From the NCBI GenBank assembly GCA_965203535.1, contig OZ241897.1:452790-516789 (forward strand): a DNA stretch of 64,000 nt, in the 5' to 3' direction. Under the pieces are notes generated by a model that saw only the letters and a program-made list of their open reading frames with translations, was not told the origin of the DNA and searched no databases. Origin of the DNA: Acidobacteriota bacterium. GTDB lineage: Bacteria; Acidobacteriota; UBA6911; RPQK01; JAJDTT01. Below, piece by piece: positions 22,815 to 37,040 of this stretch. The stretch's first letter is position 1. Every line of letters starts with the position of its first letter. The position numbers were made by a program, and so were the translations under genes.

Positions 22815-23717
22815 ATGCGTAAGTGGGGATTCCGGATTGCTCTTTCCGTCCTTTTGTTTCCGCTCGCCGGAGTGGACGGAACGGCCAAGAAATTAGAGAC
22901 GGACGATCTGATCGTCCTCCATCTAAAGGCCATGGGCGAGAACCCGGTGCGTAAGAATCGGGTGGCACAGGGATTGGGGACGTTGGACATCCGCGTCGGC
23001 GGCCTGGGTAAGCTGGGCGGTCCGGCCATGATTCTGGCGGAGGGGAACAAACTCCGGACCAGTTTCGGCTTCGGCCATATCCAGTATCCCAGGGAGCTCC
23101 TGATCCGGAACGGCGACAAGTTGGACATCGCCTACATCACTCCCGGCATCCGTTCCCAGTTGGGCACCGCCCTCTGGATCCACTTCCCCCGACTGGCACA
23201 GGAGGGTCTCTATGGAGGTGTCCTCACCACCGACTGGGCTCTGCTGGATCTCGAAAAGAGGCGCGCCAAGGTCCGCTACCGGGGGCTCAAGACGTTCGAG
23301 GACAGGAAGCTGCATGAGTTGGAGTATCGGCCCAAGAAGGGAGTGGAATACAGAATCCGGCTCTACTTCGAGCCTGAGACTTACCGACACGTGGCCAGCA
23401 GCTACCGCCTGACCATTCCGGCCGGCGTGGGGCGGGGGTTGATGCACGTGCAACAAGGACCCGTCTTTGGCGCCGCCGACGGGCCCGCGGACAACACGCG
23501 GATCCAATTGATAGAAACCTTTTCGGAATTCAAGGAAGTCGACGGGTTGACCCTGCCGCACCATTACCGGATCACCCTCAACGAGTCTGCGGCCACCGGC
23601 ATGGACTCGGGTGCCGGCTTCGCCCCCCGTAACGGCTTCGCAGGGCACTGGGAGATCAAGATCGACCGCATTTCTCACAAACACCGGATCACCCCCCAGG
23701 CCTTCGCCATCAAATGA
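22815..23717 (+). CDS. Secreted protein of the same paralogous family, copy 5 of 5
   Basis: MRKWGFRIALSVLLFPLAGVDGTA|KK. Starts 3 nt after the copy 4 stop. The copy 4 TGA stop sits inside the aggTGAatcATG RBS of copy 5. Confidence 0.85.
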   Translation: MRKWGFRIALSVLLFPLAGVDGTAKKLETDDLIVLHLKAMGENPVRKNRVAQGLGTLDIRVGGLGKLGGPAMILAEGNKLRTSFGFGHIQYPRELLIRNGDKLDIAYITPGIRSQLGTALWIHFPRLAQEGLYGGVLTTDWALLDLEKRRAKVRYRGLKTFEDRKLHELEYRPKKGVEYRIRLYFEPETYRHVASSYRLTIPAGVGRGLMHVQQGPVFGAADGPADNTRIQLIETFSEFKEVDGLTLPHHYRITLNESAATGMDSGAGFAPRNGFAGHWEIKIDRISHKHRITPQAFAIK

Positions 23718-30737: not shown

Positions 30738-30898
30738 ACGCCATGCCGGCGGTTGGAAACCGCCGCTTCCATGTCACAGGTCTTTTCCACACTTGACTCG
30801 CCGGACCCACAAATTGTTTAACGGACTCTTCATTCCTCCTTTAAAATGCCGCTGTAAACTTCCATCGGCACTGGACCAGCCGAGATGGAAGCAACGCC

Positions 30899-31600
30899 AT
30901 GAAGAACGGCAAGAAAATCATCGTCATCGAGGATGAACCCGATATCCAGGAGGTCATCGTTCACAACCTCCTGAGAGACGGGTACCAGGTGGACGCGACT
31001 CCGAATGGGGAACGGGGCCTGGAACTGGTCCGCAGTCTGGAGCCCGACCTGGTTCTGTTGGACCTGATGCTCCCCGGCCTGGACGGAGTCGAGATCTGCC
31101 GCCGCATGAAGACCGACCCTCGTACACGAACGGTTTCCATCATCATGGTCACGGCCCGCGGGGAAGAAAGCGACGTCGTCCTGGGATTGGGCCTGGGCGC
31201 CGACGACTACGTATGCAAGCCCTTCAGCCCCAGGGAGCTCATGGAGCGGGTCAAGGCGGTGCTCCGCAGGGGACCACTCCAGGACCAGCAGAGCCGGGAA
31301 CGAATCGTCGTGGGAGATGTCGTGATCGATGCCGGACGCCACGAAGTGCGAGTCGCCGGCCGGCGGATCGATCTGACCGCTTCCGAGTTTCGCCTCTTGC
31401 ACTGCCTGGCATCTCAGCCTGGCCGTGTCTTCACCCGGGACCAACTCTTGAACCGGGTGGTGGGAGAAGATACCTTCATTGATGATCGCAACATCGACGT
31501 CCATGTCGGTGCAGTCCGCCGGAAGCTGGGGGCTCACAGGTATCTGGTCGAGACCGTCCGGGGCGTGGGCTACCGCTTCCACGACGAATACATGCAGTAG
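30899..31600 (+). CDS. OmpR/PhoB-family response regulator
   Basis: Receiver domain (IIVIEDEPDI...LDLMLPGLDG) and a winged-helix output domain. Confidence 0.9.
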   Translation: MKNGKKIIVIEDEPDIQEVIVHNLLRDGYQVDATPNGERGLELVRSLEPDLVLLDLMLPGLDGVEICRRMKTDPRTRTVSIIMVTARGEESDVVLGLGLGADDYVCKPFSPRELMERVKAVLRRGPLQDQQSRERIVVGDVVIDAGRHEVRVAGRRIDLTASEFRLLHCLASQPGRVFTRDQLLNRVVGEDTFIDDRNIDVHVGAVRRKLGAHRYLVETVRGVGYRFHDEYMQ

Positions 31601-33379
31601 ATGCTCCGTTCCCGCCTGCTGTGGAAACTCTATCTGGGCTATTTCGTCCTGATCGTGTTGACCGCATCCATCCTGGGCAGTCTGGTCTCCTGGCGGATCA
31701 AGGAAGACTCGCTGGAGGAGATCCAGTCTTCACTTCGGACTCACGCCCTCTTTCTCCAGGATTTTGCCGGGCACCGTCCCGCTGACGAATCGGCAACGGA
31801 ACTCAAGGGTCGGCTCCGTACGCTGGGCCGGGAAATGGGAGCCCGCCTCACGGTCATCGGCGCCGACGGCGCCGTCCTGGCGGACTCGCACCAGGACCCG
31901 GCCGAGATGGAAAACCAGTTGAACCGGCCGGAGATCCTGCGGGCTCGATCCCACGGTTTGGATACCCGGTCCAGATTGAGCGAACTCCGAGGCGTCCCCG
32001 CAATCTCCCTGGCCTTGCCCGTTGATAAGAAGTCCGGCATTTTCGGCTACGTTCGCGTCTCCATGCCGCTGTCGGCGATCGATGCGCGGCTGCAGAGATC
32101 GGGGAAGGCCGTCCTGGGCGGCACGATCACCGTCGCCGCCGTAGCCTTGATCCTGGGTTTGCTGGTGGCTCGGCGCCTGCTCAAGCCCTTGGTCTCCATG
32201 ACCCGCATCGCCGAATCCATGGCCGGAGGCGACTACGGCCAGCGCCTGTCCATTGCGCGATCGGACGAGATCGGAGAGTTGGGTGATGCACTCAACCGGA
32301 TGGCGCGCAGCAGCCAACGACGCATGGAGACGTTTCAAACCGATCACCGGCAACTCCTGGCCATTCTCGGCGGCATGGCGGAGGGAGTGGTGGCCGTTGA
32401 CGAGAACGAACGCGTCCTGCATATGAACGAGGCCGCCGGCCGGATCCTGGGAGCCGATGCCTCGACCAGTCTCGGCAAGCCGGTGTGGGAAACGACGAGG
32501 ATCCCGCAAATCTCGGAGACCATTTCCAGCGCCCTCCGGGAAGGGACGGGTGTGAACACCAGCCTGGAAATCAGGTCGTCTCCCCGAGACCGGTCCATCG
32601 AGTTGAAAGCCACGCCTCTCCGAAACGGCGAACAGGCCCCGGTGGGAGCCGTGGTGGTGATGCACGATGTCTCGGAACGGCTGCAGGTCGAGACCATGAG
32701 ACAGGATTTCGTGGCCAACGTCTCCCACGAACTCAAGACGCCCGTCGCCGCCATCCAGGCTCTCGTGGAGACGATCCTGGACGACCCCGAGATGTCCGGC
32801 CAGACCCGGGAGCGGTTTCTTCGGAAGACCCGGAACCAGTCCCTCCGCCTCTCCTCCATCGTGTCCGACCTGCTGACCCTGTCCCGAATGGAATCGGAAG
32901 AGGGAGTCACCCGCGAAACCGTCGACCTGCGGGACACCGTCGCCGTGCCGGCGGAGGAAGCCATCCCGACCGCGGAAGTCAAGAGAATCCGGCTCCGTAT
33001 TCGGGTCCCGGACCGTCCCATGTGGACCACCGGAGACATGGAGGGACTCTGTCTGGTCACGTCGAACCTGGTGGGAAACGCCCTCAAGTACACGCCCGAG
33101 AAGGGCGAGGTGACGGTCAGCCTGAGCCAGGAGGGAGACCAGGCGCTGTTGGAGGTGGAGGACAGCGGAATCGGCATCGAGGCCCGGCACCTGGACCGCA
33201 TCTTCGAACGCTTCTACCGGGTCGACACGGCCCGCTCCCGGGAACTGGGCGGCACCGGATTGGGCCTCTCCATCGTCAAGAGAGTAGTGCTGGCCCACAA
33301 CGGCAGCGTCTCGGTGGAGAGCATTCCCGGCCGGGGAAGCACCTTTCGAGTCGTGCTTCCGGTTCCCGGGAATTCCTAG
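31601..33379 (+). CDS. Sensor histidine kinase (PhoR-like: TM-HAMP-PAS-HisKA-HATPase)
   Basis: H-box SHELKTPVAAI, N/G boxes (NLVGNALKYT, DSGIGI, GGTGLGLSIV). The start is immediately adjacent to the regulator stop. Confidence 0.9.
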   Translation: MLRSRLLWKLYLGYFVLIVLTASILGSLVSWRIKEDSLEEIQSSLRTHALFLQDFAGHRPADESATELKGRLRTLGREMGARLTVIGADGAVLADSHQDPAEMENQLNRPEILRARSHGLDTRSRLSELRGVPAISLALPVDKKSGIFGYVRVSMPLSAIDARLQRSGKAVLGGTITVAAVALILGLLVARRLLKPLVSMTRIAESMAGGDYGQRLSIARSDEIGELGDALNRMARSSQRRMETFQTDHRQLLAILGGMAEGVVAVDENERVLHMNEAAGRILGADASTSLGKPVWETTRIPQISETISSALREGTGVNTSLEIRSSPRDRSIELKATPLRNGEQAPVGAVVVMHDVSERLQVETMRQDFVANVSHELKTPVAAIQALVETILDDPEMSGQTRERFLRKTRNQSLRLSSIVSDLLTLSRMESEEGVTRETVDLRDTVAVPAEEAIPTAEVKRIRLRIRVPDRPMWTTGDMEGLCLVTSNLVGNALKYTPEKGEVTVSLSQEGDQALLEVEDSGIGIEARHLDRIFERFYRVDTARSRELGGTGLGLSIVKRVVLAHNGSVSVESIPGRGSTFRVVLPVPGNS

Positions 33380-33622
33380 CCCGCATTTCTCATCAGGTCG
33401 CTATGCGTATGATGAAAAACAATCTGGTTTTGAACATTTCCGCGGATTTTTCCAAGGATTTTCCGGGACAGACTCCGCTGGGCGCGCGCTCGCTGGTCTT
33501 TTCGCCCTCAGCGCGCACATGCTCCCTCAAACGTAGTCACCACTACGCTCTCGGTCGCGAGCACGCGCTGAGGGCGAAAATCCTGCGCGATCGTCACGCC
33601 CCCTGATGAAAAATGCGGGCTA
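33377..33622. mobile_element. MITE-like element: ~20-bp terminal inverted repeats (GCCCGCATTT(C/T)TCATCAGG) flanked by TA on both sides, an inner 18-bp inverted repeat (TTTTCGCCCTCAGCGCGC) and a central small hairpin (CGTAGTCACCACTACG)
   Basis: Read directly. Left arm cTAgcccgcatttctcatcagg at ~33376-33397 and right arm cctgatgaaaaatgcgggcTAg at ~33602-33623 are reverse complements with 1 mismatch. The inner arms are perfect over 18 bp. There is no coding capacity. The R/G-rich track ORFs crossing it are spurious. Confidence 0.6.
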
Positions 33623-35281
33623 GTCCCTTTTCGGTCGCCTGAGGGGGTCGACGGCGACCATGCCTGCGCTGCGAAATCCGAAGACCTTGGCGTTGAAGAG
33701 GCGAAAGTGCAGGCGCACGGTCTTCCCGGCCAGATCCTCGATTCCCGCGCCGTCCTTCCAGACCAGCGGAACCCAGATGCGGTTCCCCGAAATGGGTTGG
33801 GCCCGGTAGACCTTCCGGTCCGGATCCCCTTCCACCATCAACTCGACGGCTACCGATCCGGAATCACCGTGCGTGCGGAGGTTGACCTCCACCGGCTTTC
33901 CCTGGAAGCGGAACCGCTGGGTCGTGAACTGGCCCTCCTGCGCGGCCTCGATCCCGGCCAGGCGGCCATCCTCCCAGGCGGCCCAGCCGATTCCCCGAGG
34001 CCACTTCCGATCCTTCTGGAAGCGGACTTTCCACCACTCGTTGTGGGACCAACTGCTGCCGACGATGGGAACCGCGATCCGCCCGTCGGGCAGTTGCACC
34101 AGGGAGGAGACGGCGTACATGGAGCCGCCCGCCCAACTCCCCGGCTTGCCCAATTCCACGATGGATTCCCGGCTCATCCAATTCCAGACGATGCCGTCGA
34201 GGCTTGTGGCCATCCGCAGGTCGACCAGACTCGTGTCCCGGTGGTAGACGGAGGCCAGCATGAGGTGGGTGTTCTCCGTCCCCGGGTAGTGGAGGTAGGT
34301 GTTGTTGTAGAAGTCGTCGGAGGGAGACTCTTCGGGTCCGGGGGTCAGGACCAGGTTGGGATGGGGCCACCGGCGGAAATCCGAGGTCTCGGCCCGGGCG
34401 ATGCTGCGGCGGCGAGGGTAGTTCTGCCGCATCAGCATCACGTACTTTTTCAATTTGCCGTCGAAATAGATGCTGGGAACGCCGTCGTTGTTGAAATACG
34501 TGTTCCAGAGCGGTTCGGGAAGGCGTTTCCAGTGGATCCCGTCGGGGGAGACGGCCGCTCCCAGGATGCCGCTCATGCTCTTGGCATTCGGCTGAAACAA
34601 CCGGATATTGGTGAGGCTGGTGGTCTTGTACCGCTCCTCGGGAGGCGCGTTGGGATCGACGAAGATGTGACCGTTGATTCCGGCAAGGCCGTTGAGGGCG
34701 ATCAGGTTGTTGTCCCGGCTTCCCTCGAACTCCACCATGCCCATGGAGACCCGTTTCCAGTTCAGGCCGTCCTCAGACTCCGCATAGCACACCCCCGAGC
34801 CTCCGCTGTCCGACCCCAGTTTCAGGCGGCCGTCAGGGGCGATCACTGCGCGGTCCCGTACGGTCCAGCCGCAGCCATACCAGAGACGATAGCGGCCGTC
34901 CTCGTGGATCACGGCCTTGGGCCCGATGCCGCTTCTTTCCCAAGGCTTCTCCGGTTTGAGCCAGGGACCCACGGGCCGGCCCTTTTCGACTCTGATCTTC
35001 ACGCCGCTGGCGACCCGTATTCTCCGGGAGGCACTGGGTCCGTCCGAGACGTACATGGTGGCCTTGTAGTAGTCGCGCACTTTGTCGATCAGCTGCCGGT
35101 CGTGTTCGGTCACGTGGGTCAGATCGACGGGAAAGATGGCGTTTCCCGGATCCACCTTGGTCCAGTCGGTGAAGATATGAGTCACCACCGGGGAGGCGTC
35201 GTTCTGGGACAGGGAAATTCCCCACGAGAGACTGCAGACCATCCCCACCAGAATCGAATTGAAGCGGCGTTTCGTGTTCAT
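33620..35281 (-). CDS. Secreted glycoside-hydrolase-like beta-propeller protein (five-bladed GH43/GH32-clan-like; family not assigned)
   Basis: Signal peptide after the ATG at 35281 (verified), with RBS gagga. Repeated DG(I/L)HW/NW blade motifs and FEGSRDNN. Paralogous to the next gene. Confidence 0.7.
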   Translation of the reverse strand: MNTKRRFNSILVGMVCSLSWGISLSQNDASPVVTHIFTDWTKVDPGNAIFPVDLTHVTEHDRQLIDKVRDYYKATMYVSDGPSASRRIRVASGVKIRVEKGRPVGPWLKPEKPWERSGIGPKAVIHEDGRYRLWYGCGWTVRDRAVIAPDGRLKLGSDSGGSGVCYAESEDGLNWKRVSMGMVEFEGSRDNNLIALNGLAGINGHIFVDPNAPPEERYKTTSLTNIRLFQPNAKSMSGILGAAVSPDGIHWKRLPEPLWNTYFNNDGVPSIYFDGKLKKYVMLMRQNYPRRRSIARAETSDFRRWPHPNLVLTPGPEESPSDDFYNNTYLHYPGTENTHLMLASVYHRDTSLVDLRMATSLDGIVWNWMSRESIVELGKPGSWAGGSMYAVSSLVQLPDGRIAVPIVGSSWSHNEWWKVRFQKDRKWPRGIGWAAWEDGRLAGIEAAQEGQFTTQRFRFQGKPVEVNLRTHGDSGSVAVELMVEGDPDRKVYRAQPISGNRIWVPLVWKDGAGIEDLAGKTVRLHFRLFNAKVFGFRSAGMVAVDPLRRPKRD

Positions 35282-36964: not shown

Positions 36965-37040
36965 TGGTAGCCCCAACGGGAGTCGAACCCGTGTTACCGC
37001 CTTGAGAGGGCGGCGTCCTAGGCCACTAGACGATGGGGCC
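36965..37040 (-). tRNA. tRNA-Glu (anticodon CUC)
   Basis: The reverse complement reads GGCCCCATCGTCTAGTGGCCTAGGACGCCGCCCTCTCAAGGCGGTAACACGGGTTCGACTCCCGTTGGGGCTACCA. It has a cloverleaf with 7-bp acceptor stem, anticodon stem CCGCC/GGCGG and loop CU-CUC-AA, T-loop GGTTCGA and encoded CCA. It closely resembles bacterial tRNA-Glu. Confidence 0.9.

Follow-up and report, generated by a model that had tools for sequence, protein, structure and literature searches.

Bacterial miniature inverted-repeat transposable elements (MITEs), among them the Correia elements, ERIC, RUP, Nezha and the Tn3-derived TIMEs (PMC4133298), are small and non-coding, carry terminal inverted repeats and a target duplication, fold into a stable hairpin, and occur in many copies, often at gene ends. 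The transposase families with which such elements can be compared have different hallmarks: 4-bp duplications and 5'-CC..GG-3' termini for IS1380 and piggyBac, and TA duplications for IS630/Tc1-mariner (PMC10045372). Here we analyze a 64,000-nt stretch of the genome of an Acidobacteriota bacterium (contig OZ241897.1, positions 452,790 to 516,789 of the forward strand; hereafter the window), in which a 240-bp element occupies positions 33380-33619 between two convergent genes. This element is very probably an IS1380-family MITE, a miniature transposon that is not autonomous and whose insertion duplicated a CTAG target.

Compared with the bacterial MITEs named above, with which it has all of the listed features in common, the element differs in having IS1380 as its partner family and in using a palindromic 4-bp target that contains a stop codon on both strands. 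With IS1380-family insertion sequences (e.g. IS1380, IS1247, ISEcp1 and a 1655-bp element on plasmid pKF715A) it shares the CC...GG termini, the 4-bp duplication and an outer 13-22 nt identical to full-length members that have CTAG or CTAA at their flanks; unlike them it is 240 bp long, has no transposase gene and an interior unrelated to those of the full-length members sampled, and would need to be mobilized in trans. MITEs of the IS630/Tc1-mariner group are alike in the central TA of the target and the preference for CTAG, but the duplication here is 4 bp instead of 2 bp, and the termini and partner transposase are of IS1380 type. Eukaryotic piggyBac and its MITEs belong to a distantly related transposase superfamily and also have a 4-bp palindromic target and CC..GG termini (PMC10045372, PMC5718144); their target is TTAA, whereas the present family is prokaryotic and targets CTAG, with CTAA, TTAG and TTAA as variants. 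A literature search of incomplete coverage, which paired IS1380 with MITE and with CTAG, returned no description of IS1380-derived MITEs, and no paper contained the repeat as a text string.

Organization of the element

The element proper is non-coding, reads CCCGC...GCGGG from end to end, and has CTAG at either side, the left copy at 33376-33379 and the right copy at 33620-33623. These copies, to which no strand applies, are assigned to the target-site duplication from the sequence itself and from the way in which flanking 4-mers co-vary across 123 copies of the family. The terminal inverted repeats are 18 nt long: CCCGCATTTCTCATCAGG at 33380-33397 on the plus strand, which is the 3' end of the element in the canonical orientation of the family, and CCCGCATTTTTCATCAGG at 33602-33619, read on the minus strand, which is the 5' end. 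An earlier note on this DNA, made from the sequence alone, had described terminal inverted repeats of ~20 bp with one mismatch, and both the sequence and a repeat finder agree, the latter giving the arms GCCCGCATTTCTCATCAGG (33379-33397, plus strand) and GCCCGCATTTTTCATCAGG (33602-33620, minus strand) with one mismatch; counted together with the flanking CTAG, the arms extend to 22 nt and are 95% complementary. It had also seen no second copy in the window, which a scan of the 64 kb confirms, as the 19-mer of the terminal repeat occurs nowhere else in it (two matches arose in 0 of 100 shuffles). Two weaker repeat-like matches, at 23665 and 38217, lie within coding sequence and are chance occurrences.

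Between the terminal repeats, two domains can be told apart. An A+T-richer, poorly conserved domain at 33398-33479 on the minus strand (canonical nt 141-222) has a GC content of 0.48-0.51, against ~0.64 in the flanks, and forms the variable part of the copy alignments. The conserved structured domain at 33480-33601 on the minus strand (canonical nt 19-140) is delimited by minimum-free-energy folds, a covariance model and covariation. The list of open reading frames (ORFs) contains none that belongs to the element itself, and tblastn with an IS1380-family transposase found no match in the 64-kb window.

A dispersed family of copies

An exact scan for the repeat 19-mer, covering one genome per species and taking 8-kb loci around the hits (numbered with an L below), found it at 109 loci in species-representative genomes. 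The variable position of the repeat is T in 19 of these hits, mostly chance matches inside genes, and C in 90, with TA standing before 70 of the latter and CTA before 56. At about half of the loci an inverted partner repeat lies 38-650 nt away, the modal spacing corresponding to a 240-241-bp element. The hosts are metagenome-assembled genomes (MAGs) of Acidobacteriota, Gammaproteobacteria, Planctomycetota, Alphaproteobacteria and Deltaproteobacteria-type lineages, with the acidobacterial ones spread over several lineages, including Bryobacterales and the genus Ca. Versatilivorator, and some 8-kb loci hold 3-6 repeat ends. The copies closest to that of the window are 94% identical (L066 and L070, from Acidobacteriota CBDCJH01), followed by copies from Versatilivorator at ~80%. 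A metagenome scan for CTAG plus the consensus repeat yielded at least 120 matches and at least 72 further complete elements. Genomes and metagenomes together gave at least 123 complete copies, whose sizes peak at 160-179 and 230-249 nt and whose consensus target is CTAG. The likeness to MITEs proposed in the earlier note is upheld. The element is mobile and non-autonomous, has many copies elsewhere, and shows what is expected of a MITE: it is small, lacks a transposase ORF, has terminal inverted repeats and a duplication, exists as dispersed and polymorphic copies, and shares its ends with autonomous elements.

An apparent rule by which one end reads ...CATCAGG and the other ...CACCAGG was rejected as an artefact of the search pattern: among the metagenome matches listed, 211 of 223 ends have C at position 14, and the ...CATCAGG of the window is a minority variant. 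The 160-179-nt class (22 copies; metagenome loci L126-L245) has only the terminal repeats in common with the 240-nt class and is devoid of the hairpin motif. Repeat-only mini-elements of 38-59 bp with CTAG-like flanking 4-mers are found at L047:6088-6125, L081:1443-1494 and L106:6172-6230. In the Planctomycetota MAG GMC4.metabat2.66, many copies lie at most ~150 nt from contig ends (L002, L006, L020-L022, L024, L041, L043, L044 and L107), and the repeat evidently breaks this short-read assembly. Repeat pairs spaced 1.0-1.2 kb apart in L047 and L071 were considered as autonomous elements and set aside, as they enclose ordinary genes. The ORFs beside "solo" repeats at 30 loci included none that looked transposase-like in an inspection of their first residues made without a family search.

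The duplicated target has four bases

The four bases on each side of the element, set as CCCGC...GCGGG, were compared in the 123 complete copies. They are identical in 64 copies, as CTAG in 57, TTAG in 2, CTAA in 2, TTAA in 2 and CCAG in 1. Identical pairs other than CTAG were thus seen 7 times, against 0.93 expected when the right-hand 4-mers are permuted, and none of 20,000 permutations reached 7. This shows that the duplicated target is 4 bp long, with CTAG as its consensus. The earlier note had read a TA duplication from the TA next to each end, a claim that fails on the co-variation of the flanking 4-mers, which includes CTAA/CTAA, TTAG/TTAG, TTAA/TTAA and CCAG/CCAG. A TA duplication around an element with G...C ends cannot yield CTAA...CTAA, for which the ends would have to be A...C, and CCAG...CCAG holds no TA at all.

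IS1380-family transposases between the same ends

With the whole element as query, BLAST found no match in 72,556 plasmids; only a synthetic query made of the repeat alone reached plasmid insertion sequences. Its matches among annotated plasmids were in pKF715A of Pseudomonas putida (L113) and in a Stutzerimonas megaplasmid (L114). At both loci a 1655-bp element that starts with CCCGCATTTCTCACAG and ends with CTGTGAGAAATGCGGG is flanked by CTAG on each side and carries a single gene, annotated as an IS1380 family transposase. The 460-aa transposase of L113 scores 512 bits against Pfam PF13701 and 407 bits against NCBIfam NF033539 "IS1380 family transposase" (cut-off 180). A search for homologues of the transposase gave at least 8,000 candidates at E <= 0.001, and the best 120 of these are mostly 460-461 aa long and 67-84% identical.

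The same architecture was found on the contigs of three homologues, including full insertion sequences flanked by CTAG/CTAG (L117) and by CTAA/CTAA (L120). The metagenome loci extend this to the full repeat, CCCGCATTTCTCACCAGGG(GG), which in L239, L237 and L241 adjoins transposases that are 55-60% identical to the plasmid one. L239 holds a 1676-bp element with this repeat at one end and CTCTGGTGAGAAATGCGGG at the other, and its transposase is 60% identical to that of the plasmid; L237 and L241 start with CTAG and then CCCGCATTTCTCACCAGGGGG, match the window element over 21-22 nt, and continue into a transposase gene. Overall, insertion sequences of 1.66-1.70 kb on the plasmids and metagenome contigs are bounded by the same ends, those of L113, L117, L239, L237 and L241 sharing 13-22 nt of terminal repeat with the element, and the transposases of L117, L120, L199, L237, L239 and L241 are 55-74% identical to the L113 protein. 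All transposases found between these ends are IS1380-family, in a survey that made no systematic search for IS630 partners. A side observation is an unannotated IS1380-family transposase beside a repeat match on a plasmid of Bradyrhizobium sp. 62B (L115:3099-4473; CP092842.1), which is recovered as two tblastn pieces and is probably frameshifted.

From the 4-bp duplication, the CC...GG termini and the partner transposases, we therefore assign the element to the derivatives of the IS1380 family and not to IS630. The CC...GG repeats would be recognized by a widespread clade of 460-aa IS1380-family DDE transposases, supplied in trans.

Insertion polymorphism at the orthologous locus

One of the two genes flanking the element, on the minus strand at 33620-35281, encodes a secreted-looking 553-aa protein, which falls in a 90%-identity cluster of 88 sequences, and five related assemblies could be read across the locus. 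The other gene, a histidine kinase of 592 aa, lies at 31601-33379 on the plus strand. In L246, where the 553-aa protein is 96.6% identical to that of the window, the same insertion is present with CTAG on both sides and 4 substitutions in 240 bp, and the kinase has 592 aa; all 4 differences fall within the A+T-richer domain (33398-33479). The locus is empty in L247 (95.3% identity; kinase of 588 aa), where the two stops overlap in TTAG (…CCGGTTTAGCCCGTC…), in L248-250 (92%; kinase of 592 aa), where the junction reads TAG GGCGG TCA, and in L110 (91%; chromosome OY764083.1; kinase of 606 aa), where the genes overlap by 23 bp. In the fifth, L251 (91.7%), the locus is rearranged and the kinase almost wholly deleted. 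The insertion predates the split between the window strain and L246, and relatives that are further removed within the same genus-level group do not have it.

Where the two genes end without the element, a question raised in the earlier note, can be answered from these relatives. The empty loci keep a kinase of 588-606 aa, the length of 592 aa being found in L248 without any element, and the C-termini are the same with and without it, the kinase ending in …SGNS in L248 and in …PGNS in the window and the other protein in …RRPKRD.

Three further features of the region are recorded here. The C-terminal tail of the kinase and the junction vary in every relative (window 33340-33379; L247:4150-4175; L248:4155-4185; L110:7640-7690), which marks a small indel hotspot. 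A 67-aa "gene" is called inside the orthologous element copy of L246 (1870-2073) and is likely an annotation artefact. In L251:4200-5260 (ENA ERZ25072076, ctg246117; corresponding to about 30800-33400 of the window), a deletion has removed the response regulator and the kinase almost entirely. Their place is taken by CTAG with a repeat end and an internally deleted element copy, by a group II intron without an ORF (84 bits for RF02003; 37 bits for RF00029, whose gathering score is 40), and by a second repeat end with TTAA after it, inside the kinase 3' end. Because the flanks are unequal, this arrangement suggests a deletion between two element copies.

Several observations weigh against the assignment to an IS1380-derived mobile element and its history at this locus. 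The exact predicted empty site (…AATTCCTAGTCCC…; empty allele …GGGAATTCCTAGTCCCTTTTCGG…) is not found in any of the relatives read, whose empty alleles differ from it by indels of 9-23 nt beside the junction, and a scan of metagenomes for empty-site alleles gave 0 hits. About half of the copies have flanking 4-mers that differ from each other, presumably as a result of decay. Searching with exact patterns accounts in part for how little the repeat varies across phyla. Neither the 64-kb window nor the 8-kb loci taken around the 109 genomic copies contain an IS1380 transposase gene, and outside the repeat of 13-22 nt the interior of the element has no similarity to any of seven autonomous elements, so that it is by their ends and target only that parent and derivative would be linked.

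A conserved hairpin domain

The earlier note had described a perfect 18-bp inner inverted repeat nested within the terminal ones, and a central hairpin. Both structures are present, although the inner repeat is perfect over 17 bp and not 18: TTTTCGCCCTCAGCGCG (33499-33515) pairs with CGCGCTGAGGGCGAAAA (33564-33580), and on the minus strand G.U pairing lengthens it to 20 pairs. The domain at 33480-33601 forms a long irregular hairpin. It comprises this 20-bp stem, in which 33499-33518 pairs with 33561-33580, as well as internal loops of tandem G.A and, at 33529-33550, an apical hairpin with the loop CACC on the plus strand. Folding of a 261-nt region gave -122 kcal/mol on the plus strand (z = -8.6) and -146 kcal/mol on the minus strand (z = -10.6), far more stable than shuffled sequences, none of 200 being as stable on either strand.

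The fold is shared across the 240-nt subfamily. Its copies from Acidobacteriota and Gammaproteobacteria are only ~50% identical in the interior and yet keep both the length of 240-241 nt and the fold, in which the terminal repeats pair with each other, nt 19-25 pair with nt 134-140, and the long irregular hairpin lies between. This hairpin has conserved unpaired motifs, namely CGCAGGAT opposite AAGACnAGCC and the GA/GA tandem loops, and is capped by a CGTAGY-loop-RCTACG hairpin. A covariance model (R1) built on nine acidobacterial copies found ~43 copies in other lineages and scores the window element at 146.9 bits on the minus strand.

These features raise the possibility that the ~120-nt hairpin of the MITE is a functional RNA or single-stranded DNA (ssDNA), which binds a host or transposase protein or protects 3' ends, and that this explains the spread of the element across phyla. 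A set of 30 copies, drawn from Acidobacteriota, Gammaproteobacteria and metagenomes, has 90.8% of cells paired, compared with 66% for shuffles and 31-44% for slid controls; changes on both sides are seen in 38 of 47 pairs, and the covariation score is 0.64, against 0.08-0.14 for slid controls, all of these values coming from an alignment that was fitted to the structure and from copies related by descent. Outside the copies used to build the model, G.U pairs outnumber A.C mismatches by 73 to 23, and the canonical strand, which is the minus strand of the window, folds better in 18 of 23 copies. The domain is also absent from autonomous elements, in that the hairpin model had no match in those sampled, and the conserved motifs and constant length described above point the same way.

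Against this, there is no orientation bias relative to neighboring genes (a gene reads into the sense strand in 8 of 35 cases and into the antisense strand in 12 of 36), no promoter or terminator consensus across the copies, and nothing to show preferential transcription of one strand. The 160-179-nt subfamilies have the same ends and are equally abundant without the domain, which is therefore not needed for mobility, and long palindromes commonly arise as by-products of MITE formation. We thus regard an explanation of the cross-phylum spread by a functional hairpin as unlikely, though it deserves consideration, and are rather more doubtful that the hairpin is a functional structured RNA or ssDNA module riding on an IS1380-type MITE. 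If it were, the hairpin could serve as a protein-binding platform that boosts mobilization, or as a portable 3'-end stabilizer delivered at stop codons; the domain may help transposition, or it may act on the 3' ends of the transcripts on either side.

Two known structures were compared with parts of the element and rejected. A hammerhead ribozyme, suggested by CUGAUGAGAAA in the repeat, does not fit, as the family consensus CUGGUGAG breaks the conserved core and stem II is lacking. A REP/RAYT element, suggested by GTAG in the apical hairpin, is at odds with the terminal repeats, the duplication and the IS1380 partners.

Alternative origins of the element

The earlier note compared the element to IS630/Tc1-mariner-derived MITEs, which would here have duplicated TA around an element with the ends G...C. 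CTAG is indeed a known preferred target of IS630, and TA stands beside both ends in most copies and before 71 of the 109 hits of the 19-mer. This origin is nevertheless highly improbable, given the co-varying flanking 4-mers with a CCAG/CCAG pair that is without any TA, the IS1380-family rather than IS630-family transposases encoded between the same ends, and the CC..GG termini and 4-bp duplications by which IS1380 and piggyBac are defined (PMC10045372).

The earlier note left open whether the element was inserted or serves as a bidirectional structured terminator, and it is the insertion that stands, being polymorphic among relatives. A locus-specific bidirectional terminator or riboregulator for both convergent genes, not mobile, would suit the very stable fold on both strands directly after both stops, but can be practically discounted, because presence of the element varies among relatives (the locus is empty in L247, L248-250 and L110, i.e. 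in three related lineages) and several phyla carry copies, in total at more than 100 unrelated loci, so that the element is neither unique nor conserved in position; in addition, there is no U-tract terminator or promoter consensus, no Rfam family and no orientation bias. No U-tract terminator follows the terminal stem of the element (a single scan hit was at the level of shuffles), and Rfam returned only sub-threshold miRNA-like hairpins for 33300-33700 and, at the gathering threshold, only a tRNA for the window. A secondary effect of the inserted element on transcript 3' ends may exist.

Flanking genes and insertion at gene ends

The kinase gene is preceded by a response regulator, and its product matches the Pfam families sCache_like, HAMP, PAS, HisKA and HATPase_c. 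The convergent 553-aa protein has 237 homologues, mostly of similar length, in MAGs of Acidobacteriota, Opitutaceae, Poribacteria and Planctomycetes, where tandem paralogues are frequent. It had been labeled glycosidase-like, which survives as a weak, sub-threshold likeness to GH130-type phosphorylases; the protein has no Pfam match, and its only NCBIfam match, to beta-1,2-mannobiose phosphorylase, scores 25.8 bits against a cut-off of 450. Further along, a tRNA gene lies at 36968-37040 on the minus strand (Rfam, 62 bits), downstream of a gene for a 499-aa protein. In L110 the matching side of the 499-aa gene has a gene for a 536-aa protein, and no tRNA appears among the gene calls there, no tRNA scan having been made.

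The kinase stop (TAG, 33377-33379) lies within the left CTAG copy, and the stop of the 553-aa protein gene is the TAG that reads as CTA on the plus strand at 33620-33622, within the right copy. The earlier note held that each stop used a base of the element; the gene ends do coincide with the edges of the element, but both stops lie wholly within the duplicated CTAG, and the first and last bases of the element play no part in them. The most economical reconstruction is that both convergent genes once ended in one shared CTAG; L247, the closest of the empty relatives, has a comparable layout in which TTAG takes that role. Insertion into this site would have duplicated the tetranucleotide, and, because CTAG reads TAG on both strands, each gene would have kept a TAG of its own; with both stops in the duplicated CTAG, neither protein would have been changed, and the insertion would have been tolerated.

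This arrangement is not confined to the window, as convergent ORFs end at both edges of the element in L047, L050 and L081 as well. Of 86 stop triplets that abut the repeat, 22 close in frame an ORF at least 100 codons long, compared with 6 and 6 in two control frames, and this shows statistically that copies of the family often abut gene ends. A target that contains a stop codon, together with selection that removes insertions within genes, would leave copies at gene ends, and we infer that choice of target and survival of harmless insertions both contribute to the association.

Implications

The 240-bp element is a genuine mobile element, although one of an ordinary kind. In practical terms, it is to be masked as a repeat, being a source of spurious ORF calls and of breaks in short-read assemblies. 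For the locus itself, the element family is associated with the loss of a two-component system in one relative (L251), and such elements thus also reshape the locus. More broadly, the finding means that IS1380-type transposases of one clade, whose target is the palindrome CTAG, have given rise to miniature derivatives that are abundant in several phyla. Since CTAG provides a stop codon in either direction, these elements can insert between two genes or just after one and leave the proteins unaltered, a bacterial counterpart of the behavior of piggyBac at TTAA.

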